A stretch of 32,000 bases of DNA from NCBI RefSeq assembly GCF_001465295.1, contig NZ_CP011035.1, forward strand, positions 90,001 to 122,000, given 5' to 3'. The notes below the pieces were generated by a model. That model did no database searches, was not told the DNA's origin, and worked only from the letters and a program-made list of their open reading frames with translations. Below are positions 588-19,761 of the stretch, piece by piece. Position numbers and translations under genes: made by a program. The DNA comes from Pseudoalteromonas translucida KMM 520. GTDB taxonomy: Bacteria; Pseudomonadota; Gammaproteobacteria; Enterobacterales; Alteromonadaceae. Each line of letters starts with the position of its first letter. Positions within the stretch are counted from its first letter, which is position 1.

Positions 588-683
588 GGGGCATAGTTCC
601 TTAAAAGCCATGTTTGCATAAACAGAAAAGAATGGGAGTAAATAACCAGACCTAAAACATATGGTTCATGGCATTATTAACTC

Positions 684-721
684 CTCTAAAAGCGCAGCGC
701 CTCATAACCTCTTTGTGAGTT
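684..721. repeat. about 38-bp intergenic repeat (family C), first copy
   Basis: ctctaaaagcgcagcgcctcataacctctttgtgagtt recurs almost identically at 12944-12980 (ctctaaagcgcagcgcctcataccctctttgtgaatt). Both copies are intergenic. Confidence 0.7.
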
Positions 722-772
722 AATCATTTAATGAGGCTATTGCCCGCAACTCGAAGCGCAAATAACAAGCAC

Positions 773-804
773 AAAAAAACGGCGCTAAAGTTAGCACCGT
801 TTTT
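773..804 (-). terminator. probable rho-independent terminator of ybiT (minus strand)
   Basis: Stem 779-787 / 792-800, 9 bp, with one position that is a G-U wobble in the minus-strand RNA. A7 at 773-779 gives a U-tract on the minus strand. It lies 36 nt downstream of the ybiT stop. Confidence 0.6.
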
Positions 805-839
805 ACTTAATACTTAAATAAAGTACTTAAAACCTGTTA

Positions 840-2441
840 TTACGCTACTTTTTTCTCTTCACAACTGGCTAGGTATTCGTCAAACGAGCCTTGAAAGTCG
901 ATTACTTGCTTATCTTTAATATCGATAATACGCGTAGCAAGTGACGATACAAACTCACGGTCATGGCTTACAAAAATAAGCGTACCTTGGAAGTCTTTTA
1001 ACGCATTGTTAAGTGCTTCAATGGCTTCCATATCCATGTGGTTTGTAGGCTCGTCCATTACGAGTACGTTAACGTCTTGCATCATTAACTTACCAAATAA
1101 CAAACGGTTTTTTTCACCACCTGAACAGTTACGCGCTTTTTTGTTTGAATCGTCTGCTGTAAACAACAAACGGCCTAACATGCCACGTACCATTAAATCG
1201 TTGTGCTTAGCTGTGCGCCACTGCGACATCCAATCAAACAAAGTTAAATCGTTGTCAAAATCTTTAGTGCTGTCTTGCGGGCAATAACCAAAAGTAGCAT
1301 TTTCAGACCACTTAACTTCGCCCTCTAAGCTTTTAAGCTCGTCTACTAAACAGCGTAAAAAGGTGGTTTTACCCACACCATTTTCGCCAATTACTGCAAG
1401 CTTAGCGCCGGCTTCAAGTAATAAGTCGCCGCCAGAGAACAACATTTCGCCATCAAAGCCATGGCCAATTTTGTTAACTTCAAGCGCTTGGCGATACATT
1501 TTTTTACCTTCGTCAAAGCTCAGCGAAGGGCTCATACGGCTTGACGATTTAACTTCATCAAGTTTAATTTTATCCATTTTTTTAGCACGCGAACTTGCTT
1601 GTTTCGCTTTAGATGCGTTAGCACCAAAACGGTTAACAAAGTCTTGTAGTTCGTCAATTTCAGCGCTCTTTTTCGCGTTTTCAGCAAGTAATTGCTCGCG
1701 TTGTAGGCCAGCGGCTTCTAAAAACTTCTCGTAGTTACCAGGGTAAATACGCAGCTCGCCGTAATCAATATCGGCCATGTGTGTACATACCGAGTTTAAA
1801 AAGTGACGGTCATGCGAAATAATAATCATGGTACATTTACGCTTGTTAAGCTCGTTAGCAAGCCAGGTAATTGTATGAATATCCAAGTTATTGGTAGGCT
1901 CATCGAGTAGCAAAATATCAGGGTTTGCAAACAACGCCTGTGCTAAAAGCACACGTAGTTTCCAGCCTGGCGCTACGTTTGCCATTAAGCCATAATGAAA
2001 TTCTTTATCGATACCCGCTTCTAGCAAAATTTCTTCAGCGCGGCTTTCTGCCGTGTAACCGTCCATTTCTGCAAATACGCTTTCTAGCTCAGCTACTTTC
2101 ATGCCATCGTCTTCGCTCATTTCTGGCAAAGAGTAAATACGTTCGCGCTCTTGCTTTACTTTCCAAAGCTCCACGTCGCCCATAATTACAGCGTCAACTA
2201 CGCTAAATTCTTCAAACGCAAACTGGTCTTGGCTTAGGTTACCTACTTTTAACCCTGGAGTAATAGATACATTACCCGCACTTGGCACAAGTGCCCCGCT
2301 TAAAATTTTCATGAAAGTCGACTTGCCGCAGCCGTTAGCGCCAATTAAACCGTAACGGTTACCGTTACCAAATTTAGCTGAAATGTTTTCAAACAACGGC
2401 TCTGCGCCAAACTGCATCGTGATATTTGCGGTGGAGATCAA
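840..2441 (-). CDS. ybiT: ABC-F family ATPase (energy-dependent translational throttle family), YbiT orthologue
   Basis: 533 aa with two ABC cassettes: Walker [10 protein letters not shown] and GENGVGKTT, signatures [13 protein letters not shown]-type, Walker [12 protein letters not shown] and [11 protein letters not shown]. It is collinear with E. coli YbiT as I recall it (..[37 protein letters not shown]..). A TTG start is implied by N-terminal conservation. Confidence 0.9.
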
Positions 2442-2599
2442 AAAAATGTAATCCTAGAAAAAGTACTGACAGGGATAGGCTGCAGCAAAACGCCACAAAC
2501 AAGAACCAGACAATAGGGTAAATTAGCTGGCGAATTATACAGATCCAAAGCCAAAGATGAAAGGTAAAAGAAACTTAAAAAATAGCCAGTAGAGCAAGA

Positions 2600-2750
2600 G
2601 CCGGTTTTAGATGTCAGGCTTGAGGTTTTAGGTAAAAATTAACCAAGGTTAATGTACAAGAGTAAGCGGGAGTTTACTTCGTGCTTATGGGCGAGCTTGC
2701 TGACGCGAAAAGCGCAGCTTTTAATGTGTAGGCACGATTATACATCCGGA
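2600..2750. repeat. mosaic intergenic repeat (family B), copy 1
   Basis: The modules gttttagatgtcagg, gcgggagtttacttcgtgct and agcttgctgacgcgaaaagcgcagcttttaat recur in the same order at 22975-23100. Single modules recur at 17655, 19490, 25937 (reverse complement), 31888 (reverse complement), and in the tails of the repeats at 11391-11430 and 11735-11775 (reverse complement). Confidence 0.65.
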
Positions 2751-2993
2751 TTAATTTAAACGTGTTGTGTGGGTTTTTAAATTTAGTAATAACAAAAACT
2801 TGTACTTAATTGTTTAAAAGTTAAGGCTAAATTTACATAATTGTAAAAGCAGGCGCGTATTAATGATAACGGCGTAGTTTTTATTGGTTATATAACTAAT
2901 AAGCCTATATTTATTTTTACCAATCAGGTAAATTGTTTTAAATGAATACTAACTTAATAATACGTTAGTTATTAACAGATAAACCAAGGAGCG

Positions 2994-3599
2994 GTGTGTC
3001 TCGTGTCAAACTCCACACTTAGTTACTACAATCAAAACGCACAAAGCTTTAGTGACTCAACCCTAAATGTTGATATGTCAGTGCTGTATGCTGAATTTTT
3101 GCCACATGTTACCGAACATGGTCATATTTTAGATGCAGGCTGCGGCAGCGCCCGCGATGCTGCTTATTTTAAACAGCTTGGTTTTACTGTTAGCGCGTTT
3201 GATGCCAGCGAACAACTTGCTGCATTAGCAAGCAGCTACTTACAGCAACCCGTCGACGTTAAAACCTTCCAACAGCTAGATTGCGTTAATAAATACGATG
3301 CTATTTGGTGCTGCGCTAGCTTATTGCACGTGCCAAAAGCTGAACTTCTGCAGGTGTTTTTAAACCTACAAAATGCACTAAAACCCAATGGGGTTTTGTA
3401 TGTATCGTTTAAATATGGCGACACAGAGCGTGTGCATAATGGCCGTGAATTTACCGATTTAACTGAAAATGGTTTAACGCATTTACTTAGCCATACGCAG
3501 TTAAAAGCGATTAAACAATGGCAAAGTGTTGATCAGCGCCCAGAGCGCGAAAGTGAAGTTTGGCTAAATGCGCTGATTAAAGTAGTACACGTTTTATGA
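2994..3599 (+). CDS. class I SAM-dependent methyltransferase (small-molecule/Methyltransf_11-12-like, not a canonical DNA MTase)
   Basis: 201 aa. Motif I is ILDAGCGSARDA, followed by an acidic residue at the end of beta2 (VSAFDAS) and post-motif YDAIWCCASLLHV..LKPNGVLYVSF. There is no (D/N/S)PP(Y/F/W) or PCQ/ENV DNA-MTase motif. GTG start at 2994 (AGGAG at 2986-2990), or the in-frame GTG at 3003. The stop overlaps the next start (ATGA). Confidence 0.8.
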   Translation: MCLVSNSTLSYYNQNAQSFSDSTLNVDMSVLYAEFLPHVTEHGHILDAGCGSARDAAYFKQLGFTVSAFDASEQLAALASSYLQQPVDVKTFQQLDCVNKYDAIWCCASLLHVPKAELLQVFLNLQNALKPNGVLYVSFKYGDTERVHNGREFTDLTENGLTHLLSHTQLKAIKQWQSVDQRPERESEVWLNALIKVVHVL

Positions 3600-5134
3600 T
3601 TGGAGCAATGCAGCAACAGCTCGACTTTATTGCGTATATTCAACGAATGTTAGTTGAAGGGGACTTTAGCGCAACTTATAAGTTTGCCTTGCTGCATGCT
3701 ATTGCCGATGTATGTGTAGAACAGCCGTTATTGTCAGATCAAAGTGAATTAGTAATAGAGTTACCTACACTTGCCGATAAATTAATTACCTTATATTGGC
3801 ATCATGCAATGCCGTTTCCGTCAGAACATACCGGTGAAAGCGCTCTACTTTTGCAAAACACAGGCGCGCAATCAAAAGTGATTAGCGTATTGTTTGAATG
3901 CCAACAAAACAATATTCGTAATTTACGCCAGCTAAAGCAAAGTTCATTTTACAAACCGACTTTTAATGCAGCTATGGCAACATTGAAAAGTGGTCCGCTT
4001 TGGCGTTTACAAATACTTGCCAAACAAGAAGAATGCTTTTTATACCCGCACACTAAAAACACTAAATTCATTACCTTAAATGCAGGTATCGCCAGTTGCT
4101 TTAGACGTTTTTATGATTTAGTAGTGTACTTAGCTAAAAATGCGTGGCTGCAAAAAATTCAAAGTATAAAGTACAACCAAACACTTATTGGCCCGCAAAG
4201 CCAACTGCACGACTTTTTATTTGGCTTTGATCGTAACGCACTCACAAAAGCAAAACCTGTGTTAGTAGAGCTGCAATCAAACTCATGCTTTTATTGCCAA
4301 AAGCCAATGAAAAACGATATTGAGGTCGATCACTTTATACCGTTTTCCCGCTACGCAAACGATCTTGGCCATAATTTTGTGGCTGCGCACCGCACATGTA
4401 ATAACAATAAGCGCGACTTTTTAGCTGCGCAGCAACACCGTGAGCGTTGGCAAAAGCAAAACTTGGTTGTTAACAGCCAAATTATTAATAATGAGCTAAG
4501 TGCGTATTTTCACTGCGATGCAGATAAGTCACTCGCAGTAAGCAATTGGGCGTATCAGGTGGCACAAGCCAACAACGCTAAATTATGGCTTGGAAATAAA
4601 GACCATTTTGAGCAAGCAAAACCAACCGCCGATATAGTGGCTTTCCCGCAAGCAAAACAAACAGAGTTAAATCAAGTTGCAGAGCCTGTTATTAGCTTAA
4701 AATCAACTGATGATGCGCTAAAGCTGCCGTATTTCCCCAATATTAAAATTGCTTGTGGGCATTTTAAAACAGGGGATGAGAGCGACATAGAATTAATGGA
4801 TGCGCCACTTGGTGCAGGCAAGCTCGATCCGCAAGTACACTTTTTAGCGCATGCATGGGGTAACTCAATGAATGGTGGTAAAAATCCGATTAACGATGGC
4901 GATTTACTGTTACTTGAGCTTATAACACCCGATAAAGCGGGATCGCTACGCGGCCAAATTGTCGCGATTGAGCGAGATGATATAGGTGGTGACGGGCAGT
5001 ATTTACTGCGTAAAGTTAATAAATTACCTAATGGGCAATATGAGCTAATCGCTCAAAACCCAGATTATGAAGTAATGATTGCTGATGACAGCATGCGAAC
5101 ATTCGCACGGTTTAAGCAAGTGGTTGTGGAATAA
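3596..5134 (+). CDS. three-module protein: unassigned N-terminal domain + HNH nuclease motif + C-terminal S24 (LexA/cI/UmuD-like) peptidase domain
   Basis: 512 aa. The HNH motif is at nt 4286-4420: CFYCQKPMKNDIEVDHFIPFSRYANDLGHNFVAAHRTCNNNKRDF (CxxC..DH.IP..N..H..CN..K). The C-terminus aligns by eye with lambda cI/LexA: GNSM (Ser424, nt 4865-4867) ..INDGDLLLLE.. GQIVAIE.. YLLRKV (Lys473, nt 5012-5014) ..NPDY. The upstream IKIACGHF (Cys387-Gly388, nt 4754-4759) resembles the (A/C)-G self-cleavage site. Confidence 0.8.
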   Translation: MIGAMQQQLDFIAYIQRMLVEGDFSATYKFALLHAIADVCVEQPLLSDQSELVIELPTLADKLITLYWHHAMPFPSEHTGESALLLQNTGAQSKVISVLFECQQNNIRNLRQLKQSSFYKPTFNAAMATLKSGPLWRLQILAKQEECFLYPHTKNTKFITLNAGIASCFRRFYDLVVYLAKNAWLQKIQSIKYNQTLIGPQSQLHDFLFGFDRNALTKAKPVLVELQSNSCFYCQKPMKNDIEVDHFIPFSRYANDLGHNFVAAHRTCNNNKRDFLAAQQHRERWQKQNLVVNSQIINNELSAYFHCDADKSLAVSNWAYQVAQANNAKLWLGNKDHFEQAKPTADIVAFPQAKQTELNQVAEPVISLKSTDDALKLPYFPNIKIACGHFKTGDESDIELMDAPLGAGKLDPQVHFLAHAWGNSMNGGKNPINDGDLLLLELITPDKAGSLRGQIVAIERDDIGGDGQYLLRKVNKLPNGQYELIAQNPDYEVMIADDSMRTFARFKQVVVE

Positions 5135-5136
5135 TA

Positions 5137-5408
5137 ATTGTAGCTGCGATTTTATCTCGCGCTCATAAATTGTTTTTTGCGTGAAGATTTAAAGGGTTTA
5201 AAAACCTCTATTTGAGGTTTTATCGCCGTGGGATCACACTTTATCTTCAACTTACGTTATTGATGTGAACGTAACCAGCGTAGATAGGCCATCCATGGCC
5301 AAGCTACGCTTTTTACAGCATTGCCGAAAGGGATTTAGGTACTTGGAGTTTGTCGGGAACAAAATTCCACCATGCTGTAAGCACTCACCATCAACTAAAT
5401 TTAATTTT
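5137..5408 (-). repeat. structured intergenic repeat (family A), left copy, inverted relative to the copies at 10673-11775
   Basis: By-eye alignment of 5224-5405 with the reverse complement of 11455-11650 is near-identical over long blocks (gaacgtaa.cagcgtagataggccatccatggccaagctacgcttt; gggatttaggtacttgga.tttgtcgggaacaaaattcc). The outer part 5137-5223 parallels the reverse complement of the 11650-11775 tail (aattgtag...ctcgcgct). It contains the 32-nt two-tier hairpin at 5278-5309 and the hairpin at 5201-5221. Confidence 0.75.
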
Positions 5409-5544
5409 TGATTACATATAGTTAGGTGTATTTATTTATGAACGCATGCAGGAGTTGAAGTATATTGGTTAGTAATTGTTTATTAAGTATTAGTAAATTA
5501 CTTTCTCTTAGAACTTGTTATTTTTTAAAATTAAGGAATATTTT

Positions 5545-7470
5545 ATGTTAACGTGGATTATAGATGAGCTGACCCAAAGAAGCCGACGAGGTAGAAAGTC
5601 GTTGGTTAATAATTTTAAGGTTGAAGGCTGGGCTGATGGGTATATTTTTATACGTGAGTTATTCCAAAATATTTTGGATAACCGTATTAATCCAAGTGAA
5701 CCAGCAAAAGTATTTATAAACTTTGAAAAAATAAAAACTACCGAAGCAATTAAACAATATCAGATGCTCGTTAAGCCAATACATAAGCATTTAAATGCAT
5801 CAGAAACTAATTATTCTGGTATTTCCGAAAACCCTACAATGTTGGTTATAAGAGAAGAAGGGACTACTGGCTTTAAAGGTGAATATACTGATAGTGATGC
5901 AGAGAATAGCGATTGGGCAAACTTTTTTTTTGGGGAAGCATTAGAAGCTAAATCAGGGGCTAAAAACGGAAGGGCAGGCCAAGGAAAGATAATTTATTAC
6001 ATGTTGTCACAATTAAGGTGTGTCTTTTTAGTTACTAAAAGAGCTGAGGATGGAAAACTACTTTTAATGGGCAATATTAATTTATCAAGAACTCATAAAT
6101 GTGAAGATAAAAGTTACGAGACTTTTGGTTTTTGGGCAAATAATAAAAGTGAACAGCCTTTACCATGTGAAGATGAAGAGTATATTAAAGAGTTTTGTAG
6201 AAATTTCGGTGTAGATATATCTACATTGGATAGTGGAAACGTATATTTTATACCCCAACCATCAGAAGAATTAACAGAGAGTATTATTATTCAAGCATCT
6301 GTCCATGACTTCTATTTTCCTATTTTAAGAAACAGGCTTGCAATAGAAGTTGGCAGTAAACTTATAAATAAAAATAATCTTATCTCAATTGCAAAAGCAA
6401 ATTCACACAAGTTTACAGATAAATATGACTATGCTCCATCCTCTGAATTTTTAGACTTTGTAGAGCAGTGTATTAACTTAAAAATACTTTCACCTGTAAA
6501 AAATGTTCGGTGGAGTGGAAGTGAAGATAGTTTCTATAACATTTATGATGAGCAAACAATAAAGGAAATAAAGAAAAAATTTGACAAAGAAAAAATAGTA
6601 GCTATTCAGGTACCCATATATATTTCCGAAAAAAATGGAAATAACTATACTGAAAATCTTTATGTGTACCTTAAACGTTCTGAAGTAATTGAGCAAACAG
6701 AAGAAGCTTTTATCAGGACTGATTTATTTATAGCAAAAGAAAGACGATTAAGAATTCACACAGGTAAAAATGCTTTTGGTTTGGTTGTAGCTGATGAAAG
6801 AAGCCCTAATCTGGCTGAGTTCCTTGCAAATGCAGAAGAAGCTTCTCACTTAATATGGAGTGCGAAAGAGAGTAAGGTTGAGGATAAATATAAAAATATT
6901 AAGAATACTTTAGCTAAAGTCCGTCAATCATTACCTAAGTTATTCAATCTTTTACTGGATGATGAGGAAAGTGAGGATAGGGCATTTCTTGTAGGTTTAT
7001 TATCTGTTCCAGTTGATGAGAAACTCTCAAGAAAGAAAAAGAAAAAAAAGAAAAATATAGATAATAAAGGAGGCGAAAACCCAGCTCCTACAGAGCCTAT
7101 TCCTAGTAAATTGCCAATGATTATTCTTTCAGACCTTCCTGATGTGAATGGTTTTATGGTTTCCCCTACTGAGTATATCAAAGAGCAAGATGTGCCTTTC
7201 GAGATAGAGTTAACTGCAGCTTTTGATAATGTTTTATCGGAAGGTAATCCACTAAAGCTATATACTCATCTAGACTTTGACTTTTCAGCGTTGAATCAAT
7301 TTAAAGTATATGAGAATAATTGTGAAGTGATATCTGCTGACTTGAACAAAATATTTTTAAAAGTAAACAGCAATGATTTCAAGTTTTCTATATCAGGATT
7401 TAATAGCAGCGTACCATTGAAAGTCAAATACAGAATAACTCAAGAAAATGATAAGGATATTGAGCTATGA
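5545..7470 (+). CDS. GHKL/Bergerat-fold ATPase-like protein (MORC/Hsp90/sacsin-like N-terminal domain) with an unassigned C-terminal half
   Basis: The ORF is open from TTG at 5515. ATG at 5545 is preferred (AAGGA at 5532-5536, 8-nt spacer), giving 641 aa. N-box IRELFQNILDN (E-x3-N-x2-D, nt 5653-5682); G1-like box VIREEGTTGFKG (nt 5854-5880); G2-like box NGRAGQGKIIYY (nt 5968-6000). The stop overlaps the next start (ATGA at 7467-7470). Confidence 0.72.
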   Translation: MLTWIIDELTQRSRRGRKSLVNNFKVEGWADGYIFIRELFQNILDNRINPSEPAKVFINFEKIKTTEAIKQYQMLVKPIHKHLNASETNYSGISENPTMLVIREEGTTGFKGEYTDSDAENSDWANFFFGEALEAKSGAKNGRAGQGKIIYYMLSQLRCVFLVTKRAEDGKLLLMGNINLSRTHKCEDKSYETFGFWANNKSEQPLPCEDEEYIKEFCRNFGVDISTLDSGNVYFIPQPSEELTESIIIQASVHDFYFPILRNRLAIEVGSKLINKNNLISIAKANSHKFTDKYDYAPSSEFLDFVEQCINLKILSPVKNVRWSGSEDSFYNIYDEQTIKEIKKKFDKEKIVAIQVPIYISEKNGNNYTENLYVYLKRSEVIEQTEEAFIRTDLFIAKERRLRIHTGKNAFGLVVADERSPNLAEFLANAEEASHLIWSAKESKVEDKYKNIKNTLAKVRQSLPKLFNLLLDDEESEDRAFLVGLLSVPVDEKLSRKKKKKKKNIDNKGGENPAPTEPIPSKLPMIILSDLPDVNGFMVSPTEYIKEQDVPFEIELTAAFDNVLSEGNPLKLYTHLDFDFSALNQFKVYENNCEVISADLNKIFLKVNSNDFKFSISGFNSSVPLKVKYRITQENDKDIEL

Positions 7471-8270
7471 AATTGAGTGGAATTCATACAACAAATCCAA
7501 CAAAAAGACTAAAAATCCCAAGTGATAAAATTAGTATTACTTTACATACTGACTCAGATGGTAATGAAGCTTTTGAGTTAGACTTAGTATTATTATCAGA
7601 TGTTATATTGGGAATGAATTTACAAGATGTATCTGCAAAAGTTAGTTTATATGCTTATTCTTCTAATGCTGAGCAAGAGTATGAGCTAGGAACAGTATCA
7701 AGTTTTAAAAAGCCATCAAACCTATTACTAGAAGAGCTGGACTTTGCTTCACTTAAAGGGTTTAGGTTGATAATCTTTAATGATGCTCAACAGATAATCG
7801 CGAGTAATGAAACTCTTAAGTATCGCTCAAATGATGAGCCAGAAGATGAAAACTCACTTCTAAATGTAGAGCTTCTAGATCTTGGACAGAGAATTTGGAA
7901 AGTTAAACTTTCTGATGATACCAACCCTATTTTGGTATTAAACAAATCAATTCCAAACATTAAAAATGTAGTAAAAGACAATTCAGGTATTCTTGGCTGT
8001 ATACTTCCTGAACTAACAAAAGAATGTATTGTTCATTTAGCTTTTAATAAAGCCGCTGATATATATGATAAAAGTTGTTGGCAGTACAATTGGGGGAAGT
8101 TTTTGGAGTCATTCGGAATACAATTCGAAAATATACCTGACTTACTTGAAGAGCCTAGAGAGTATTACTCATTATTAAACACTATCGATGATTTATTAGA
8201 AAGTTACTGTTTTCAGAAAAAGTTTGCTAGTAAATTTGCAAAAGATATAGGAGTAGCAATAAATGATTAA
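7467..8270 (+). CDS. hypothetical protein, 267 aa (operon gene 2)
   Basis: Long ORF in an AT-rich, stop-codon-rich context. There is a 4-bp overlap with the upstream gene and an 8-bp overlap with the downstream gene. I recognised no motif. Confidence 0.68.
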   Translation: MKLSGIHTTNPTKRLKIPSDKISITLHTDSDGNEAFELDLVLLSDVILGMNLQDVSAKVSLYAYSSNAEQEYELGTVSSFKKPSNLLLEELDFASLKGFRLIIFNDAQQIIASNETLKYRSNDEPEDENSLLNVELLDLGQRIWKVKLSDDTNPILVLNKSIPNIKNVVKDNSGILGCILPELTKECIVHLAFNKAADIYDKSCWQYNWGKFLESFGIQFENIPDLLEEPREYYSLLNTIDDLLESYCFQKKFASKFAKDIGVAIND

Positions 8271-8997
8271 TATTTCCGTTTTTAATGAGTTCGGACTTCA
8301 AATCTTTAGAGAGTATATAGAAAGTAAAGGGCTTAAAGAGTTACCAAAAGATATTTTGATAGGTGAACAGTATTCGCAAGTTATTTCAAATGATATTTTT
8401 CTTGATGAGTCAAAAAGTTTTGAAGATAGATTAATGATGGCAAAGTACCTTGATGAAACTGTATCGGCAAATATCTTTGATTTATTCGATAATAAACCAG
8501 AATTTTGGAGTTGGATTTGTTGCTTATATATTGAACAAATAATTCAGAATGGTAAATTTAGTAAACCAGAACACTATATTTATATGCCTGGTAGAATAGT
8601 CTACAGACATTCTGTTGCAACGCCTGTAAGGCTATATAGGCAGCATGGCCATGATATTTCTAGAATGCTTATCAGTAATAAAATGCATGTGTGGGGCGAG
8701 CTAGCTGAGCAAATTAATGGGCGTCAATACTTAACTCGTTCAAAAAAGTTACTTAATTTCATTTGTAATTTATATTATGACAGAAATAAAGATAGCTTAA
8801 AGCCTAGTACTGGCTCTAAAATTTCTAGTAAATTATTAAAAAATGGAGAAAGATCAAGAGCTGGTGAAGGAGGGGCAAGAAGAGTTGCTTTACAGCTAAA
8901 AAGGTTATCACTTAATTATAAAGTAGATGCAATGGATGTAACTAGCATTAATTCCCTTTTACCTTCTGAATATGAAAAGTTTATAAGTAATAATTAA
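8263..8997 (+). CDS. hypothetical protein, 244 aa (operon gene 3), with a basic C-terminal segment
   Basis: AGGAG at 8246-8250 lies upstream of ATG 8263. The start overlaps the gene-2 stop (ATGATTAA). I recognised no motif. The C-terminal third is K/R-rich (KNGERSRAGEGGARRVALQLKR). Confidence 0.68.
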   Translation: MINISVFNEFGLQIFREYIESKGLKELPKDILIGEQYSQVISNDIFLDESKSFEDRLMMAKYLDETVSANIFDLFDNKPEFWSWICCLYIEQIIQNGKFSKPEHYIYMPGRIVYRHSVATPVRLYRQHGHDISRMLISNKMHVWGELAEQINGRQYLTRSKKLLNFICNLYYDRNKDSLKPSTGSKISSKLLKNGERSRAGEGGARRVALQLKRLSLNYKVDAMDVTSINSLLPSEYEKFISNN

Positions 8998-9004
8998 GTA
9001 GAGG

Positions 9005-10546
9005 CTAATCAAGCCCTCTTTCTGAAAGGGCAATGATTACCCCCCCAATCTGCTGTGCCAAATACGGTGGCACAGCATTACCTACCTGCACATACTGGTT
9101 AGTTCTCGTCCCTTCGAAAATATAATTATCAGGAAATGTTTGTATACGTGCGGCTTCACGTACGCTTAAACTTCTGCACTGCTGTGGGTCATAATGAACA
9201 AAGTAATGCCCATCTTTTGAGATATGGCTTGTGACTGTCGTTGCATATTTATTGGCAACTTGAACCCTAAATCGATCTGAATGTGTTCCAGTATTCCAAT
9301 TAGCATGGGCCGGGGCTAGTTCTTGTGGGAAATGACGAGATTTAGGTGATAAACCTTGGATTTTTGCATATGCTGCACAGTATGAGTAACGTAGTAAGTC
9401 ATCAACCATATGGCCTCTAGTTTCATGATTTAGAACTACTTTAAGGCTTGGATCGATATACCAAGATTTTAAAGGCTCTGGCATGATAGGAGCTTTGTTA
9501 CTTAAAGCTTTCTCTTTTCTTGTTAAGCCTATTTTTGGTAAAAGGTTCAAGCTATTTGCTGATTCTTCATTAAATTGCTTTGTCAGAATTACTTTTAATT
9601 TAGCTGCATTTTTAGTAACAGCTGTTTCCCAATCTTTTGCATTATCTTTTTGTTTTGAAAAGCCGCTGCGTAAATTTGGTAAGTCACTAATAACTTGTTC
9701 TACGGTAACTTGGTGTTCGCATAGCTTTAGTGTTTCTGGGGTTGCTTTAATATCCTCACGTACACCTAGTAAAATTACACGATGCCTAGCTTGAGGTATA
9801 CCGTATTGCTCACAACGAATTAAAAAATCAGCAGAATCTTTGTATTGTGGGTCTTCTGGATTGTCAGCATCAACGACTAATGAATAGACTTTATATTTTG
9901 GAATTTTTTTGTGTTTTGTTACTGAGCCAGGGCTGCGCAAATCTTCTAATATTTGCGGAAACATGACTTGGCCGTTCACTTTTGCCGTAAGTATCCCTCT
10001 TACATTTTCCATCACAAAAATATCAGGCTTCGCTAGGCAAATTACTTCTAAGTACTCTTTGTATAAAAAGTGGCGAGCATCATCTTCTGCTATGTAACTT
10101 TTGTTACCAGCATTTCGTGAACGTCCTGCAAGTGAATAGGCTTGGCATGGAGGGCCGCCGATTAGAACTTTTGGGCCTTTATGCTTTTTGACGAGTTCCT
10201 TTATGCGTTTATGGATTAGCTTATTGTCTTTGCCTAGTTCTTTTGCACCATTTAGAGTTTCTTTATTGGCTTCTGTTGCAACATCAGGATGGAGCTTGAA
10301 TAACTCATCTCTTGTAATTTCACCATGTAGATAACGATAGTAATTATTTAATGACTGAGATTTGGTTTTGAGTGTACGATAAAACGCACGAGTTGTTAAA
10401 GTTTGATGAGCATGGACATCCTTCTCAACAGAAATACCTATTTGAAAAGGTAATTTACCATCAGAAGTTTGAGCCGCTGAAATTCCTTCCCCAAGCCCAC
10501 CAGGGCCAGCGAATAAATCAATGACCAGAATTTCACCGTTTACCAT
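9005..10546 (-). CDS. dcm: DNA (cytosine-5)-methyltransferase
   Basis: All canonical C5-MTase motifs are present in order: I DLFAGPGGLGEG, II SVEKD..A..T, IV GGPPCQAYSLAGR, VI FVMENVRGIL, VIII QARHRVILLGV, IX REAARIQTFPDNYIFEG, X VGNAVPPYLA. 513 aa. Confidence 0.93.
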   Translation of the reverse strand: MVNGEILVIDLFAGPGGLGEGISAAQTSDGKLPFQIGISVEKDVHAHQTLTTRAFYRTLKTKSQSLNNYYRYLHGEITRDELFKLHPDVATEANKETLNGAKELGKDNKLIHKRIKELVKKHKGPKVLIGGPPCQAYSLAGRSRNAGNKSYIAEDDARHFLYKEYLEVICLAKPDIFVMENVRGILTAKVNGQVMFPQILEDLRSPGSVTKHKKIPKYKVYSLVVDADNPEDPQYKDSADFLIRCEQYGIPQARHRVILLGVREDIKATPETLKLCEHQVTVEQVISDLPNLRSGFSKQKDNAKDWETAVTKNAAKLKVILTKQFNEESANSLNLLPKIGLTRKEKALSNKAPIMPEPLKSWYIDPSLKVVLNHETRGHMVDDLLRYSYCAAYAKIQGLSPKSRHFPQELAPAHANWNTGTHSDRFRVQVANKYATTVTSHISKDGHYFVHYDPQQCRSLSVREAARIQTFPDNYIFEGTRTNQYVQVGNAVPPYLAQQIGGVIIALSERGLD

Positions 10547-10672
10547 AACTTTACTACTAAATAATTAAATGACGTAGGATGATACCAGGCTTATACATGG
10601 TCTTAAAGTTTTAAATAGCAGTACTACTGCTAATAGAGCAAATTAGCAACACTATTAGAAGTTTAAACACAG

Positions 10673-10925
10673 AAGCTGAGATAATTCCCCGTGATCACGC
10701 CCGAAATTGAAATAATGATGAGTAATTTACAGCATGGATGCTGTTGAAAAGCGTAGTTTGGCCACGGATGGCCTATCTACGCTGATTACGTTCATATCAT
10801 TAATTTGAATTGAGGAAGTAGTGTGATCCTCGGGGCGCCGTGGGGTTCCAAGGGGCGGTCGGCGGTATCCACCCCTTGGTTGCCATCGCCAACGCGATAT
10901 GTATAAATAATTTGCAATTAAAAAA
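10673..10925 (+). repeat. structured intergenic repeat (family A), right copy R1 (internally shorter)
   Basis: It shares with R3 the blocks gctgaga.aa..cc-gtgatcac.cccgaaattgaa.taatgatgagtaat, the 32-nt hairpin (10751-10782), gattacgttcatatcattaatt, gtgtgatcctcggggcgc, hairpin 2 (10848..10879), ggttgcc.tcgccaacgcga and tttgcaattaaaa. Confidence 0.75.
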
Positions 10926-10995
10926 TCGTATCACGATTTAAATTTTGTTCAATTACTTGCGTAATTAACTGCTCGTAAATACCAATCTGCTGCAT
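10918..10995 (-). pseudogene. 25-codon ORF stub (MQQIGIYEQLITQVIEQNLNRDTIF*), a possible 5' remnant of a larger gene truncated at the R1 repeat
   Basis: ATG at 10995-10993 is preceded by GGGAG (reverse complement of 11004-11008). The stop TAA (10920-10918) lies inside the conserved repeat module tttgcaattaaaa. Whether the stub is a real remnant is uncertain. Confidence 0.25.
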
Positions 10996-11149
10996 TAAAG
11001 CCACTCCCTGTTTGCGAACATTCAGTTTACTAAAATACGGTACAGCTACAAGTATTAATCGTCTAAGTTACTAGTAATTAAGTATAAACGTGTGAGTTAA
11101 GTACTAGGCGAGCGAGTAATTAAAGGATGATGCTAAGAAACCCTCCCCT

Positions 11150-11435
11150 TCAACTTCACCTGAAAACACATAATTAATGAGTAATTACCTCGCATGGAGG
11201 CGAGGAAAGCGATGCTTGCACATGGATGTGCTTTCATCGCGTTTACGTTCATATTAATTTAGTGTTTAAAGATAAGTGAAATTGAGGGGCGCTGTGGGGT
11301 TCCAAGGGGCGGTCGGCGCTTTAATTTGGTAAAGAGCGCCCCTTGGTTGCCGTCGCCAACGCGATATATAACTAATATTTGCAATTAAAAGCTCAAGCGC
11401 GAGGTAAACTCCCGCCTACAATTTGAAGGCTGACG
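11150..11435 (+). repeat. structured intergenic repeat (family A), copy R2 (sequence-divergent, structure-conserved)
   Basis: It has the same module order as R1/R3. Its hairpin 1 (11219-11250, gcgatgcttgcacatggatgtgctttcatcgc) differs in both arms yet still pairs. Hairpin 2 is at 11302-11346. The tail gcgcgaggtaaactcccgcctacaat is the reverse complement of a family-B module. Confidence 0.7.
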
Positions 11436-11439
11436 CTGA

Positions 11440-11775
11440 GACAACACTCCGTGATCACACCCGAAATTGAATTAATGATGAGTAATAAGCTGCGCATGGC
11501 GGAATTTTGTTCCCGACAAATTCCAAGTACCTAAATCCCTTTAGGCAATGCGCGATAAAGCGTAGCTTGGCCATGGATGGCCTATCTACGCTGATTACGT
11601 TCATATCATTAATTACAATTGAAGAAACAGTGTGATCCTCGGGGCGCTGTGAGATTCCAAAGAGAGACCAGCGTTTGCCTTTCTTTGGTTGCCGTCGCCA
11701 ACGCGACATATAACTCAAATTTGCAATTAAAAGCCTAAGCGCGAGGTAAGCCCCTGCCTACAATTTAAAGGTTTC
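11440..11775 (+). repeat. structured intergenic repeat (family A), copy R3 (longest; best match to the left inverted copy)
   Basis: See the alignment with 5137-5408. Hairpin 1 is at 11560-11591 and hairpin 2 at 11657-11688. Confidence 0.78.
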
Positions 11776-11851
11776 GGGCTTAGCGCAATGAGGCAATTAG
11801 TCATGCTATTCGCCTCATTATGTGAGGCGAATAATAATTGTATGTGTGGTA

Positions 11852-12832
11852 CTAAATTGCAAACTGAAAGGTTTGCGTTAGCAATGGCTGTATATTGGCA
11901 TTTTCCCTACGCTTTGGATCGATGCTAACAAATCCCCAAAATTCTAAAAAGCGATTGATGAATCGAGATTCAATCAGCCTGCCTAATAGCTTACTCGGGC
12001 TTGAGTATTGAGACGCTGGAGCGTGACTAAGTAACGCTGGGAATGCGGTAATGACTTCGTCAGTTAGTTGCTCGACCGAGGCATGTTTTTGTAGTCGCCA
12101 CAGCATAAATAGCCAAAATGCGCGCAGATCCACGCTATCGGTAAAGCTGTCGAAGTAACGCCAATTGTATTGCATGATGGCGGCTTCGAGCATAGGGAGG
12201 TAAAAAGCATTAATCCCCTGGGTTTGATACAGCTTTTGCGCCGATTTTTTAATATGAAAATGGCCACTTTTATAGTAAATAATACCGGCAACATCAGCCA
12301 AAGTACGCGTGTAGTGTAGGGCGTTAAACTTATCTTCGTTACTGCCTGAAAATTCACTAATACTGATATGGATAGGGTATTTAGAAACAGCAAAGTTAGG
12401 TAGTAGCTCAGAGGCTTGCTTGACTAATTTAGCAGGTAAATTGCCTTTAGCCGTTGCTTTAATTGAGCCGCCTTGTTGCATGGCTTCAGTAAATATTAAT
12501 GCTAAATAGCTCATCACTGGGCTACTTGATAAATCTGCTGGAGTATTAAAAGTAACTTTTGTTAATTCATTGAACGGGGCATAGAGCCAATTAGATATTT
12601 GCGTTGGGCAAAGCCCGCAAAAATCACTATCGGCTTGGTTATTTCGCGCAGCTATTGTTTGTTCTGCAACAAGGTTTAGCTCATCTAAACTTAACTCTGG
12701 ATTCATGGCTAAAGTTTGCGTTATGTCATCAAATATTTGTGCATGCTGTTTAGTAGATGCAGTGTTCATACAACAATGTTTGTGCTTTTTGCCACTGCCA
12801 CATGGGCAGGGATCGTTTCGTCCTAGTTTCAT
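11852..12832 (-). CDS. SEC-C metal-binding motif protein (N-terminal SecA-C-terminus-like zinc motif; remainder unassigned)
   Basis: 326 aa beginning MKLGRNDPCPCGSGKKHKHCC, the classic SEC-C CxC..(C/H)C motif. The rest of the protein has no motif I recognise. Confidence 0.8.
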   Translation of the reverse strand: MKLGRNDPCPCGSGKKHKHCCMNTASTKQHAQIFDDITQTLAMNPELSLDELNLVAEQTIAARNNQADSDFCGLCPTQISNWLYAPFNELTKVTFNTPADLSSSPVMSYLALIFTEAMQQGGSIKATAKGNLPAKLVKQASELLPNFAVSKYPIHISISEFSGSNEDKFNALHYTRTLADVAGIIYYKSGHFHIKKSAQKLYQTQGINAFYLPMLEAAIMQYNWRYFDSFTDSVDLRAFWLFMLWRLQKHASVEQLTDEVITAFPALLSHAPASQYSSPSKLLGRLIESRFINRFLEFWGFVSIDPKRRENANIQPLLTQTFQFAI

Positions 12833-12943
12833 TTATTAGCTCGTTCTGCGCAATATGGGTTTAGTGTTACATCATTATATTTGTTAGTAAATAAAAGCTA
12901 CGAGCTGAGGGCTAACTGGAAACTGACCGTGGATTGTTATTTT

Positions 12944-12980
12944 CTCTAAAGCGCAGCGCCTCATACCCTCTTTGTGAATT
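12944..12980. repeat. family-C repeat, second copy
   Basis: Near-identical to 684-721. Confidence 0.7.
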
Positions 12981-13042
12981 TTTTACTGGCTGTTTACTTA
13001 CTTAAGAGCTTCAGCATAATTTTGCCGAAGCTCGAAGCCTGA

Positions 13043-13993
13043 TTAATACCGGCGGTTGCGATTGTGCGGTTGCTCAAATTGTGTTTTAGGCCCTAGCGGT
13101 ACTACGCCGGTGGGGTTAATAGTTTTGTGGCTGGCGTAGTAGTGTATTTTGGTGTATTCCAAGTCAATGGTGTCTTTAATACCCGGTACTTGGTACAGCT
13201 CAGTGACATAGTTATATAGGTTAGGGTATTCGCTAATTTTTTGCTGATTACACTTAAAGTGGCCATGATACACAGCGTCAAAACGCACTAAAGTAGTAAA
13301 TAAGCGCCAGTCGGCCTCGGTAATTTGCTCACCAACTAAGTAGCGCTGTTTAGCTAGGCGTTGCTCTAACCAGTCTAGGCTTTCAAATAATGCACGGTAA
13401 GCGCTATTATAAGCACTTTGCGTGGTGGCAAAGCCTGCTTTATATACGCCGTTATTTACTGTGTTGTAAATGCGCTCGTTTACGCTGTCGATTTCTGCTC
13501 GCAGTGCTTGCGGATAGTAGTCGTCGGTGTTGCCGGTTAGCTCGTTAAACGCGGTATTTAAAATGCGCATGATATTCGATGATTCGTTATTAACTATAGT
13601 ATGGGTTTTTTTATCCCATAAAATAGGAATAGTGGCGCGGCCTTCGTAATTGGCATCGGCTTTTAAATACAATTGGTAGGCGTAATTTAGGTTATAAAGC
13701 GGATCGCCGTGCTCACCAAATTCCCAGCCATTTTCGAGCATTTCGGGCTTTACTACGCTAAGTGTAATTACGTTTTCGAGTTGCTTTAATTTACGCATTA
13801 TCATGGTGCGGTGAGCCCATGGGCAAGCTAGCGACACATATAAATGGTAACGTCCCGCTTCGGGTTTAAATTGGCTATCGGCGGCGTTTGAAATTTGTTG
13901 GGTAAAGCGGCTTGCTTGGCGTTCAAACTTACCACCCGATTTTTTGGTGTCGTACCATTGGTCAACCCATTTTCCGTCTACGATTAATCCCAT
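13043..13993 (-). CDS. yqjG: glutathionyl-hydroquinone reductase (Xi/omega-like GST), YqjG orthologue
   Basis: Collinear with E. coli YqjG as recalled (MG..IDG.W.D.WYDTK..GGKF.R; RYHLYVSLACPWAHRT.IMRKLK; VNNGVYKAGFAT.Q.AY; HKTINPTG). I chose the start at ATG 13993 (AAGGAG 5 nt upstream) rather than the track start at 14038, which lies inside a 34-bp palindrome. Confidence 0.9.
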   Translation of the reverse strand: MGLIVDGKWVDQWYDTKKSGGKFERQASRFTQQISNAADSQFKPEAGRYHLYVSLACPWAHRTMIMRKLKQLENVITLSVVKPEMLENGWEFGEHGDPLYNLNYAYQLYLKADANYEGRATIPILWDKKTHTIVNNESSNIMRILNTAFNELTGNTDDYYPQALRAEIDSVNERIYNTVNNGVYKAGFATTQSAYNSAYRALFESLDWLEQRLAKQRYLVGEQITEADWRLFTTLVRFDAVYHGHFKCNQQKISEYPNLYNYVTELYQVPGIKDTIDLEYTKIHYYASHKTINPTGVVPLGPKTQFEQPHNRNRRY

Positions 13994-14023
13994 TATTAAC
14001 TCCTTAATGTGCTGTAAATGCAT

Positions 14024-14057
14024 AAACACACACCGCATAGCTATGCGGTGTGTGTTT
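14024..14057 (-). terminator. 34-bp perfect palindrome between yqjF and yqjG (terminator or attenuator hairpin)
   Basis: aaacacacaccgcatag|ctatgcggtgtgtgttt pairs perfectly from 14024 to 14057. On the minus strand it is followed by a moderately T-rich stretch (tttatgcattt). Confidence 0.5.
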
Positions 14058-14070
14058 TAAATAACCAATA

Positions 14071-14526
14071 TTACGCTTTGTTTAAGTTACGGTTAATTAC
14101 ATTATCAAGTGAGAATTTACCGCCACCTTGGATAACTAAAGCCAGTGTGATTGCTAATAGCGCTAGGCCAAATTCGTAACCGTTGTTGCTCATAAATAAG
14201 CCGTTATCAATGTGAGTGGTAAATATAGCCACAACCATAGTAATAGCCAGTACAAAGCTAGCAGGTCTTGTTAGTAGGCCAACAATTAAAAATAAGCCAC
14301 CAAAAAATTCTGCACTACCTGCCATTAAGGCCATTAAAAACCCTGGTGCTAGGCCAATTGATTCCATCCATTGTCCTGTGCCTTCTAAGCCATAACCACC
14401 AAACCATGCAAATAATTTTTGTGCACCGTGAGCGGCAAAAATAATACCTGCAATAACGCGCAGTGGTACTGCAGCCAGTGATTGTTCAGTTTTAGTGATA
14501 ACGTTAGCAATATTTTTAATAGTCAT
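14071..14526 (-). CDS. yqjF: DoxX family inner-membrane protein, YqjF-like
   Basis: About 151 aa with four predicted TM helices and DoxX-like sequence (RVIAGIIFAAHGAQKLF..FGG.GL.GT). It sits next to yqjG, as in E. coli. I prefer the start at ATG 14526 (MTIKNI...) over the track start at 14580. Confidence 0.8.
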   Translation of the reverse strand: MTIKNIANVITKTEQSLAAVPLRVIAGIIFAAHGAQKLFAWFGGYGLEGTGQWMESIGLAPGFLMALMAGSAEFFGGLFLIVGLLTRPASFVLAITMVVAIFTTHIDNGLFMSNNGYEFGLALLAITLALVIQGGGKFSLDNVINRNLNKA

Positions 14527-14628
14527 AATTTTTACCCTTATTGATGTTAAGTAAGTATGTTTAATTGAGTATGTAGCCATTGTAGTTGTTGTTTTGTAAT
14601 TAAATAATGCCTATTATTTGCTTAATAT

Positions 14629-14645
14629 GTTCAAATAATTTGAAC
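14629..14645. promoter_or_regulatory. 17-bp perfect inverted repeat, candidate LysR-type (T-N11-A) operator in the divergent promoter region
   Basis: gttcaaat-a-atttgaac is a perfect palindrome containing T-N11-A (tcaaataatttga). It lies between divergent yqjF and the LysR gene, 14 nt before ATG 14659. Confidence 0.45.
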
Positions 14646-14658
14646 AGTTGTTATTTGG

Positions 14659-15558
14659 ATGAAAAAAACCATGAGTACACCTCCTATTAGTATTGAAGCG
14701 TTACTGGTGCTTGACGCTATTGAGCATCGTGGCAGTTATGCGGCAGCCGCAGAGCAATTAAATAAAGTGCCTTCGGCGCTATCCTACATAGTACAAAAGC
14801 TAGAAGAGCAATTAAACGTGACTTTGTTTCAGCGTCAGGGGCGTCGTGCTGTGCTAACTCCTGCGGGCAAACATTTACTGACCGAGGGGCGCAAGTTGCT
14901 TTTGGCGATTAATTCATTGTCGGAGCAAACACAAACAATTGCGAATGGTTGGGAGCCAAAAATTCGTATTGCTTTGGATTCTATTATTGATATAAAACCG
15001 ATATTTACCAGTATAGAGCAGTTTTTAGCAGAACATAAAAATATTGAAATAGATGTACAAGAGCAGGTAATGAACGGCAGCTGGGAAGTGCTGATTGAAG
15101 ACAAAGTTGATTTAGTTATTGGCGCGCCGTCGCCAGTGCCGAACCAAAAAGGCATTCGCGCGGTTAAAATAGACGAGTATCAAAGCGTACTTGTGGTAAA
15201 TAGCACACACCCGTTAGCAACGCAGCAGCAACCTCTCGATATGAGTAGCCTTGCTCAGTACCGCAGTGTGATAGTACACGACTCTGCAGAGCAAGAAATT
15301 CCATGGTCGGCAAATATAATAGAGGGCACCCAGCGCTTTTTTGTTAGCTCTGTTGCGCAAAAAATTGCGGCTATTATTGCCGGTATAGGTATTGGTTATT
15401 TACCCAAGCGTTTAATTGAGCAGTATATAGTGTCGGGGCAGTTAGTGGAGGTAAAGCTAACCGATAAACGGCCTTGCCAAGACCTATTTATAGCCTGGAA
15501 AATAACTAATAAAGGTAAAGGGTTGCAACGACTTACCTCACTATTATTACAACCTTAA
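14659..15558 (+). CDS. LysR-family transcriptional regulator, YhaJ-like
   Basis: The N-terminal wHTH IEALLVLDAIEHRGSYAAAAEQLNKVPSALSYIVQKLEEQLNVTLFQR resembles E. coli YhaJ (LEALRVMDAIDRRGSFAAAADELGRVPSALSYTMQKLEEELDVVLFDR). It is divergent from yqjF. An alternative start is ATG 14671. Confidence 0.88.
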   Translation: MKKTMSTPPISIEALLVLDAIEHRGSYAAAAEQLNKVPSALSYIVQKLEEQLNVTLFQRQGRRAVLTPAGKHLLTEGRKLLLAINSLSEQTQTIANGWEPKIRIALDSIIDIKPIFTSIEQFLAEHKNIEIDVQEQVMNGSWEVLIEDKVDLVIGAPSPVPNQKGIRAVKIDEYQSVLVVNSTHPLATQQQPLDMSSLAQYRSVIVHDSAEQEIPWSANIIEGTQRFFVSSVAQKIAAIIAGIGIGYLPKRLIEQYIVSGQLVEVKLTDKRPCQDLFIAWKITNKGKGLQRLTSLLLQP

Positions 15559-15572
15559 CATTGCGCATTTAA

Positions 15573-15600
15573 AGCTAACAGCCGTGTATGGCTGTTAGCT
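15573..15600. terminator. hairpin between convergent LysR gene and nhaP2 (bidirectional terminator candidate, no strong T-tract)
   Basis: Perfect 11-bp stem agctaacagcc (15573-15583) / ggctgttagct (15590-15600) with a 6-nt loop. Confidence 0.5.
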
Positions 15601-15649
15601 AATAGCTGTAGTAAATATAATTTACTATTTAAAAGCTAAGGTAAGCCCT

Positions 15650-19714: not shown

Positions 19715-19761
19715 GAAACCCATATTGATATTTACCTAACTAATGTATAAAACCTGTAACT

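Follow-up and report, generated by a model that had tools for sequence, protein, structure and literature searches.

Here we have characterized a family of structured repeats in a stretch of 32,000 nucleotides (nt) of Pseudoalteromonas translucida KMM 520 (NZ_CP011035.1, positions 90,001 to 122,000; this whole stretch is termed the window and coordinates are counted from its first letter). The window contains four copies of a structured unit of 220-350 nt, one on the minus strand (L) and three on the plus strand (R1, R2 and R3), which bracket a low-GC cassette of four genes. We show that the unit is the TwoAYGGAY RNA element (Rfam RF01731) and that the copies in the window are paralogous; they are further members of a known orphan RNA family and not a new kind of mobile element. 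The novelty lies in the confinement of this RNA to one defence island, in its polarity there and in a covarying 3′ domain that extends the motif beyond the Rfam model. We hold with moderate confidence that the units are resident small-RNA genes of the defence island and that the inverted bracket is a by-product of the island's layout.

The repeats belong to the TwoAYGGAY family

A first-pass annotation of the window had described a left copy inverted relative to three tandem right copies and had considered an insertion hotspot, a recombination substrate and a family of small structured RNAs as explanations. The four copies were present where it placed them, and their inverted and direct relations were recovered by a repeat finder and alignment. 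The inverted arms comprise 5231-5375 versus 11494-11638 (145 nt, 88% complementary) and 5231-5313 versus 10747-10829 (83 nt, 84%), while R1, R2 and R3 are joined by direct-repeat families D1-D5, with shared blocks visible in a four-way alignment (A1). The core pattern of the second hairpin, CAYGGATGNNCTNTCNNCGC, occurs exactly four times in the window against an expectation of 0.03. The low GC content reported for the cassette was also borne out (30-32% at 5501-9000 versus approximately 40-45% in the flanks).

Membership of RF01731 identifies small structured RNAs as the fitting option among those three. In a covariance-model scan, for which the curated gathering score of this family is 43 bits, R1 and R2 scored 59.5 and 51.0 bits, and copies at eight related loci also passed (range 43.8-78.4 bits). 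L (39.6 bits) and R3 (30.7 bits) fell under the gathering score because of an insertion in hairpin 1 and, for L, truncation. The units share with TwoAYGGAY a closing stem around two hairpins with AYGGAY terminal loops, namely AUGGAU and ACGGAU in R1 and AUGGAG (last base off consensus) and AUGGAU in R2; the second loop alone remains in L and R3.

Weinberg et al. (2010) described TwoAYGGAY as a candidate structured RNA, with no function assigned, that occurs in gut metagenomes, Clostridia and gamma-proteobacteria (PMC2864571); their alignment includes a sequence of Pseudoalteromonas haloplanktis TAC125 (NC_007481.1/2620503-2620980). We find in this TAC125 sequence the same downstream GC-rich 3′ domain and terminator as in the copies described here, with identical flanks. 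CsrA binding was proposed for the motif in 2014, without experiments (PMC4333381), and a preprint sees it as a probable subset of the 5′ untranslated regions (UTRs) targeted by CsrA (10.1101/2021.11.03.467129). No functional work after the 2014 proposal was found in the literature naming the motif, and the published descriptions that we found do not mention that the units lie in a defence island, that they face outward or that variants with insertions exist. The Rfam entry carries the type label 'Cis-reg' and belongs to clan CL00106, which we take to be the Csr/Rsm clan.

Covarying structure and subtypes of the unit

The unit consists of a long closing stem (P1), two hairpins with CAUGGAUG-type loops and a 3′ domain (domain 2) made up of hairpin A (CCAAAGGGCGG...CCGCCCUUUGG) and then a small hairpin B with a CAAC or CAAG loop. 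Hairpin B varies from ATCGC-CAAC-GCGAT to GUCGC/GCGAC and GCCAG/CUGGC. Whereas the Rfam model ends after the closing stem, this covarying 3′ domain of approximately 70 nt belongs to the unit here, as does a terminator-like hairpin in one subtype.

The fold was evaluated on an alignment (A2) of 30 distinct insertion-free copies, taken from the loci of the genome scan described below and from the window. RNAalifold predicted 55 pairs, of which 27 had compensatory changes. Under a 59-pair structure, 96.7% of cells were paired and 28 of the 59 pairs had changed on both sides, values reached by none of 500 shuffles; when partners were slid by 1-3 columns as a control, pairing was 34-43%. Changes on both sides were seen in nine pairs of helices 1-3, which form P1 (strands CCCCGUGAUCAC/GUGUGAUCCUCGGGG in R1 versus CCCCUUCAACUUCAC/GUGAAAUUGAGGGG in R2), and covariation in five and four pairs, respectively, of helices 8 and 9 in the new 3′ domain. 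The selection on secondary structure suggested by the first-pass annotation is thus supported, and the compensatory changes that it noticed (GCGTAG/CTACGC versus GCGATG/CATCGC, GGCC/GGCC versus GCAC/GTGC, and CCAAGGGG/CCCCTTGG versus CCAAAGA/TCTTTGG) hold over the 30 related copies. On the modelled strand there were 35 G-U cells versus 16 A-C cells, an excess that modestly favours folding of this strand as RNA. A pseudoknot of GCGCCG with the hairpin-A loop (helix 7) was also considered; it showed just two single compensatory events and no claim is made for it.

Copies of the L type share a conserved leader, ATAAACACCAATCTACCAGCACACTCCAA, and finish with AAAACCTCGAATAGAGGTTTTT; in other genomes, 16 such copies terminate in this terminator-like hairpin or a close variant. 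Copies of the R type have another leader and no terminator, and are frequently tandem. An insertion of 45-55 nt occurs in hairpin 1 of some copies, and some also carry an insertion of approximately 110 nt in domain 2 that adds GCAUGGAUGC, CAGGAA and CAGGGAU hairpins.

Within the window, R1 is intact: the 5′ strand of P1 runs from 10687, hairpin 1 is CAGC-AUGGAU-GCUG, hairpin 2 (10751-10782) has the ACGGAU loop, and domain 2 (10832-10900) holds hairpin A at 10848-10879 and hairpin B (ATCGC-CAAC-GCGAT) at 10885-10898. R1 alone has a minimum free energy of -86.8 kcal/mol (z = -4.3). The stems of R2 are all altered in sequence with pairing kept (hairpin 2 at 11209-11240, hairpin A at 11302-11346), and R3 has an insertion of approximately 55 nt in place of the hairpin-1 loop (hairpin 2 at 11560-11591, hairpin A at 11657-11688). 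L is a truncated relic from which the 5′ strand of P1 and the entire domain containing the CCAAGGGG hairpin are missing, and its fold z-score is only -2.2. It retains a tail resembling repetitive extragenic palindromic (REP) elements (5142-5166), a terminator-like hairpin (5201-5221), the 3′ strand of P1 (approximately 5229-5241), hairpin 2 (5278-5309) and hairpin 1 (approximately 5315-5378) with an insertion of approximately 45-55 nt; at 5231-5321 it is 97.8% identical to the L-type copies of EB27, APC3691 and BSi20652. The insertion replacing the first AYGGAY loop (approximately 5322-5372 and 11502-11552 in the window; 15055-15105 in L030, the BSW20308 locus) folds as two small hairpins with UCCC in their loops, complementary to GGGA/GGA.

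The 32-nt hairpin that the first-pass annotation found in each copy corresponds to hairpin 2, with its position in R2 now corrected from 11219-11250 to 11209-11240. The second hairpin that it listed is hairpin A in R1-R3; the element proposed as its left-copy counterpart (aaaacctc...gaggtttt, 5201-5221) shares no homology with the CCAAGGGG hairpin and is the terminator-like hairpin that trails the whole unit in L-type copies of other genomes.

Distribution and confinement to a defence island

When 185,579 species genomes were searched with a stringent pattern for hairpin 2, 26 loci proved to be real, of which 25 belong to Pseudoalteromonas and the remaining one to Marinomonas flavescens. Phage records contained no match to the unit. 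Between one and six copies were recovered per genome, and eight chromid records held them at one to four places each. In the three complete replicons examined (HL-AS1, HL-AS2 and BSW20308), every copy falls within a single hypervariable island of anti-phage defence genes.

Maps of open reading frames (ORFs) and copies revealed a recurring layout. It opens with the genes for a class I S-adenosylmethionine (SAM) methyltransferase and an HNH protein, the pair after which the island begins; an L-type copy on the minus strand is next, then variable genes and finally one or more R-type copies on the plus strand. EB27, with six copies in 17 kb, shows this layout, as do FUC4, P. lipolytica, APC3691 and the window, and in at least 11 genomes the methylase/HNH pair adjoins L-type RNA. 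In HL-AS1, an 11-kb cassette is enclosed by one minus-strand and one plus-strand copy; HL-AS2 carries a single copy on the minus strand and three on the plus strand, and BSW20308 has two copies on one side and one on the other. Minus-strand copies precede plus-strand copies in all 11 genomes that could be oriented, with their 5′ ends facing the centre. From the maps, 32 of 42 non-tandem copies are head-to-head with the neighbouring gene, often approximately 140 nt from the gene start; for most copies this neighbour is the gene that opens a defence module.

The genes that separate and surround the copies have defence or toxin-antitoxin functions. They include PLD-helicase-DUF3427, an ABC-3C system, SIR2 with HerA, HATPase_c_3 with Z1, DUF4420 and AIPR, an ORC/CDC6-like ATPase with a phosphoesterase, a deaminase, NERD nucleases, AbiEii, HipA, Fic, HEPN/MNT-type pairs and several C5 methylases. 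Exact-protein look-ups of the two flanking genes gave no match. The first-pass annotation had allowed that the bracketing might be coincidental if copies were scattered at hundreds of unrelated intergenic sites. The low copy number per genome and the confinement to the island in three replicons do not fit that picture, and the link to a variable region is not coincidental, as outward-facing copies around variable defence genes recur in many Pseudoalteromonas genomes.

In Marinomonas flavescens (L027), from a different order of Gammaproteobacteria, the methylase, the HNH gene, an L-type RNA and the DUF3427 gene form the same block, with 72-88% nucleotide identity, which suggests that part of the island has passed from one genus to another. 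Beside the RNA at this locus is a DDE transposase-like ORF.

The cassette and the history of the island in the window

The cassette comprises three co-directional genes, encoding proteins of 641, 267 and 244 residues, and a convergent gene for a C5 cytosine methyltransferase. The likely start of the first gene is ATG 5545 and not TTG 5515, and its homology to metagenome modules begins at 5545. The three proteins had no sequence match in Pfam, NCBIfam, PHROGs or PDB; the 641-residue protein has a weak PADLOC match to the candidate PDC-M33A and only 12 homologues among 5.8 billion sequences. The same four-gene order (approximately 640, 265 and 245 residues plus the convergent C5 methylase) occurs in four metagenomic or run-assembled contigs (L155, L159, L160 and L161), followed by a Vsr gene in L161, and none of these contigs holds a TwoAYGGAY unit. 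The cassette is therefore an autonomous module, and the RNA is a property of the Pseudoalteromonas island and not of the cassette. No close relative of the cassette was found in the plasmid/chromid collection. The cassette is probably restriction-like, and the four-gene module may constitute an uncharacterised methylation-linked restriction or defence system.

Defence-island hotspots, and flexible genomic islands of the replacement type with core genes as borders, are a general concept. The island described here fits it in that close relatives with 95-96% identical flanks hold wholly different defence content between the same core genes, and departs from it in that RNA genes of one family are interspersed among the modules with a fixed polarity. 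Positions 673-4588 and 11787-20000 match HL-AS2 at 95.3% and 96.1%, respectively, and the content between these flanks is entirely different. As the RNA units of HL-AS2 and the window are just 81-92% identical, the units are to be counted with the variable part, and recombination in the most recent replacement took place in the flanks.

Within the variable part, 9045-10900 (methylase through R1) has 86% nucleotide identity to EB27, whose other cassette genes differ, and 10922-11368 matches by blastn (83-87%) the start of the DUF3427 gene and the R2-type unit of FUC4, APC3691 and Z1A8. Stranded between R1 and R2 is a remnant of this PLD-helicase-DUF3427 gene, together with its upstream region (10994-11136); its DUF3427 identity is taken from the Pfam domains of the intact homologue. 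These two matches and the surviving N-terminus show that the ancestor resembled APC3691, with an L RNA, a minus-strand DUF3427 gene and an R2 RNA. In the lineage of the window, the cassette and R1 replaced the body of the DUF3427 gene and the 5′ end of L, and the remnant marks the right junction of that replacement.

The units as probable small-RNA genes of the island

We propose that the units are the island's own small-RNA genes and not parts of a mobile element. The inverted bracket would then be a consequence of the island layout, with minus-strand copies first and plus-strand copies after them, and inverted repeats may be retained longer, since homologous recombination between direct repeats would remove the cassette that they flank. 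The repeated 200-bp units probably act as homology patches for the duplication and shuffling of modules, and whole-island replacement would proceed through the core flanks. The RNA most likely presents CANGGANG loops to a protein, and its transcript is predicted to end at the AAAACCUC...GAGGUUUUU hairpin. The polarity of the units and their head-to-head pairing with defence operons suggest a possible role in organising or regulating the island. We regard as rather unlikely the more ambitious form of this proposal, that TwoAYGGAY units are functional organisers of the island whose RNA couples modules to a regulator such as CsrA and whose outward 'bookends' permit module swapping.

The binding consensus of CsrA/RsmA/RsmE is CANGGANG, from work by systematic evolution of ligands by exponential enrichment (SELEX) and nuclear magnetic resonance (NMR). 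We take the unit loops CAUGGAUG and CACGGAUG to fit this consensus. A standard unit has two GGA hairpin loops, and insertion variants and tandem arrays hold more. The RNA is most likely a protein-binding RNA presenting CANGGANG loops, with CsrA as the obvious candidate, because the loops fit the consensus and because insertion variants repeatedly add such loops (GCAUGGAUGC, CAGGAA and CAGGGAU hairpins). Binding of the units by CsrA is a tentative prediction.

The largest units are found in BSW20308 (P. fuliginea; L030), where two intact tandem 'large' units (NZ_CP013139.1, approximately 816.6-817.5 kb; L030 14975-15370 and 15530-15940) of approximately 400 nt each contain approximately seven GGA triplets and their own terminator. 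Csr small RNAs (sRNAs) of P. fuliginea, named Pf1, Pf2 and Pf3, have been described on chromosome 1 (PMC9927453, PMC11882849). Our units resemble these and other sRNAs of the CsrB/RsmZ type in having GGA in hairpin loops, several paralogues per genome and, in some copies, a terminator-like hairpin. They differ in having two GGA hairpins (approximately seven GGA triplets in the large variants) versus 9-25 in Pf1-3, in the absence of a GacA box and of a published CsrA signal by RNA immunoprecipitation sequencing (RIP-seq), and in their location in a defence island on the chromid. CsrA sponges of this type usually have at least seven GGA motifs, most of them in loops; the GGA count of tandem arrays of two to three units could add up if these were co-transcribed.

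Several observations weigh against the units being RNA genes with the roles proposed above. Conservation 5′ of the closing stem extends for only approximately 25-40 nt, no sigma-70-like promoter was found upstream of R1-R3, and matches to the GacA/UvrY box (TGTAAGN6CTTACA, up to three mismatches) numbered 16 in the window versus 20 expected. The CsrA RIP-seq tables for BSW20308 list no sRNA or peak at the tandem-unit locus, where multi-mapping reads may have been lost (PMC11882849 supplements). The lack of a promoter match and of a GacA box, these RIP-seq tables and the fact that Pf1-3 are other genes on chromosome 1 speak against a classical Csr sponge. The counts of orientation (11 of 11) and of head-to-head pairing (32 of 42) are phylogenetically non-independent. 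Finally, the latest replacement used the flanks and not the units as recombination arms, with breakpoints versus HL-AS2 outside the units.

A scan of metagenomes with an Rfam-like consensus returned at least 120 loci; among the 20 tested, there was no TwoAYGGAY or Csr-family Rfam match. Tandem arrays whose units have GCCAUGGAUGGC hairpins occur in metagenome contigs that are mostly GC-rich, with units of approximately 117 nt in L131, L042, L135, L051 and L129 and with GCCATGGATGGC ... GAAAATGCAGGAGCAATTTTC arrays in L055, L122, L144 and L033. Those of these tandem-array contigs that were tested gave no TwoAYGGAY or Csr-family match at gathering thresholds, and the arrays may be unclassified Csr/Rsm-like RNAs or repeat families.

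Alternative explanations

Each unit could be an RNA component or dedicated regulator (antitoxin, guide or activator) of the adjacent module, divergently transcribed and co-inherited with it. Such a coupling agrees with the frequent head-to-head arrangement at a spacing of approximately 140 nt, with the association of the R2 type with the DUF3427 gene in FUC4, APC3691, Z1A8 and the remnant in the window, and with an R1-like unit accompanying a C5 methylase in both the window and EB27. However, the neighbouring modules are mechanistically unrelated, the four-gene module of the window occurs in four other contigs without a unit, several copies are co-directional with their neighbours or lie beside relics, and tandem copies have no partner gene. 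We consider dedicated coupling to single modules to be fairly improbable.

A further possibility, to which we assign a low probability, is that the units act at the DNA level as recombination sites like integron attC, folded as single-stranded DNA and used by a recombinase or nuclease, perhaps the neighbouring HNH protein, for capture, excision or inversion of cassettes. As with attC sites, structured repeats punctuate variable, promoter-poor modules and structure is conserved above sequence; in many genomes the units mark the edges of variable modules, at least 11 genomes have an HNH nuclease gene as left neighbour, and no convincing promoter was found. Unlike attC sites, the units lack an IntI and conserved core sites at their ends, are three to four times longer and are inverted between the arms (attC sites are direct repeats), an arrangement that would invert and not excise a cassette. 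No integrase or transposase is conserved in the islands: no integrase was seen in the unit-bearing islands examined, and the only integrase domain came from a contig (L158) with a homologue of the 641-residue protein and no RNA unit. Moreover, ASV78 (from its map) and BSW20308 (from its annotation) have units and cassettes with no methylase/HNH pair seen, and junction positions vary, L being cut within the unit and R1 abutting codon 22 of a gene. G-U cells are more frequent than A-C cells, which favours RNA on one strand, and a terminator-like hairpin closes L-type copies. The occurrence of the same cassette in contigs without the repeats, together with the HL-AS2 breakpoints outside the units, also speaks against the suggestion of the first-pass annotation that the repeats mobilise or invert the cassette.

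The Rfam type of RF01731 and the preprint cited above would favour a role as cis-regulatory leaders, in which CsrA bound to the two GGA hairpins controls translation of a downstream gene. In most copies, however, the maps show the gene on the 3′ side to be convergent and not co-directional, L-type copies end at the terminator-like hairpin, no GGA hairpin overlaps a ribosome-binding site, and in the window R3 and L are directed into the 3′ ends of the SEC-C gene and the HNH gene, respectively. A leader function is thus very unlikely.

Least probable, to the point of being nearly dismissed, is a dispersed family like REP elements, bacterial interspersed mosaic elements (BIMEs) or miniature inverted-repeat transposable elements (MITEs), bracketing the cassette by coincidence or transposition, as the first-pass annotation had proposed: tandem and inverted copies do occur and short CTAC-ending palindromes follow R2, R3 and L and sit at other intergenic sites of the window, but the 220-nt unit is much longer than REP elements, has one to six copies per genome at a single locus in three complete replicons, lacks the terminal inverted repeats and target-site duplication of a MITE, and has no RAYT or transposase in the window. 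The absence of transposase, integrase and RAYT genes, already remarked upon by that annotation, was seen among the 20 largest ORFs of the window.

The REP/BIME idea holds for the short tail alone. The 23-nt tails (GCGCGAG...CGCCTAC; GCGCGAGGTAAACTCCCGCCTAC and variants) common to L, R2 and R3 share with REP elements a GC-rich imperfect palindrome with CTAC/GTAG, and they occur singly or paired at several intergenic sites. An identical GCGCGAGGTAAACTCCCGCCTAC element lies on the minus strand at approximately 23023-23045, away from the island and as part of a pair at approximately 23023-23100, and another REP-like palindrome is present at an unrelated intergenic site at approximately 19606. The tail is a separate REP-like element that abuts the units and is independent of them. 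A reading of GGTAAACTCCCGCCTACAAT as a GacA box plus a -10 element was rejected, since this sequence is such a palindrome, also found far from units, and GacA-box matches are at chance level; the two GacA-box-like matches near units are REP-like tails.

A 14-nt direct repeat, GAATAATAATTGTA (5129-5142 and 11829-11842; 0.03 expected), was examined as an att site or target duplication and rejected. It is the sole direct repeat flanking the block, and it is not an att site because its right copy belongs to the core flank and recurs in HL-AS2, where the left copy is absent, and because the left copy is found at no other locus. Its bracketing of the whole block is probably coincidental.

Other features of the window

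The features of the island in the window are listed in Table 1.

Table 1. Units, cassette genes and flanking features of the island, with the evidence for each
Feature	Position	Strand	Evidence or remark
Class I SAM methyltransferase, left border	2994-3599	+	Pfam
HNH protein with C-terminal S24-like domain, left border	3596-5134	+	Pfam, tblastn, maps
L copy, TwoAYGGAY relic	5142..5415	-	Rfam 39.6 bits; alignments
Three co-directional cassette genes (641, 267, 244 residues)	5545..8997	+	ORFs; gene order in L155, L159-L161
C5 cytosine DNA methyltransferase, fourth cassette gene	9005..10546	-	Pfam DNA_methylase 3.3e-45; PADLOC DrmMII/MTase_II
R1, intact unit	10662..10925	+	Rfam 59.5 bits over 10677-10843; fold; covariation
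Remnant of PLD-helicase-DUF3427 gene, first 22 codons (MQQIGIYEQLITQVIEQNLNRD) intact	10925..10993	-	Sequence read versus FUC4 protein
R2, intact unit of divergent subtype	11137..11365 plus tail	+	Rfam 51.0 bits; alignment A2
REP-like palindrome GCGCGAGGTAAACTCCCGCCTAC with CTAC tetranucleotide	11397..11419	+	Between R2 and R3
R3, unit with insertion	11422..11732 plus tail	+	Rfam 30.7 bits; alignments
Second REP-like palindrome	11739-11761		After R3
Start of conserved right flank, including SEC-C gene (11852-12832)	11787..12832	-	HL-AS2 identity jumps to 96% here

The HNH protein at the left border has 512 residues, of which 1-341 are 78-89% identical to homologues of 360-367 residues in five genomes and 67-68% identical to those of four others. 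Its C-terminal part of approximately 145 residues resembles S24 peptidase/LexA and is 88-91% identical to the C-termini of PLD-helicases from P. rhizosphaerae RA15 (L003), APC3691 and P. distincta. An accidental fusion by deletion was considered and rejected, as BSi20652 shares the architecture (531 residues, C-terminal domain 81% identical); the 512-residue protein is better described as a product of domain shuffling. The S24-like domain seems to travel together with the L-type RNA downstream of it, as a single block.

At the left end of the window, an ORF of 162 residues (44-532) contains a partial peroxidase domain and matches part of a longer MMG007 region. A full katG is located near an ABC-F gene in BSW20308, and the ORF may be a katG remnant.

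Conclusions

An orphan since 2010, TwoAYGGAY now has a concrete context in which its function can be sought, with CsrA binding and an effect on the expression or exchange of defence modules as possible roles. If the units were organisers of the island, unrelated defence modules would be captured, duplicated and swapped without a dedicated recombinase, and a 16-year-old orphan motif would gain a role in the plasticity of immune islands.

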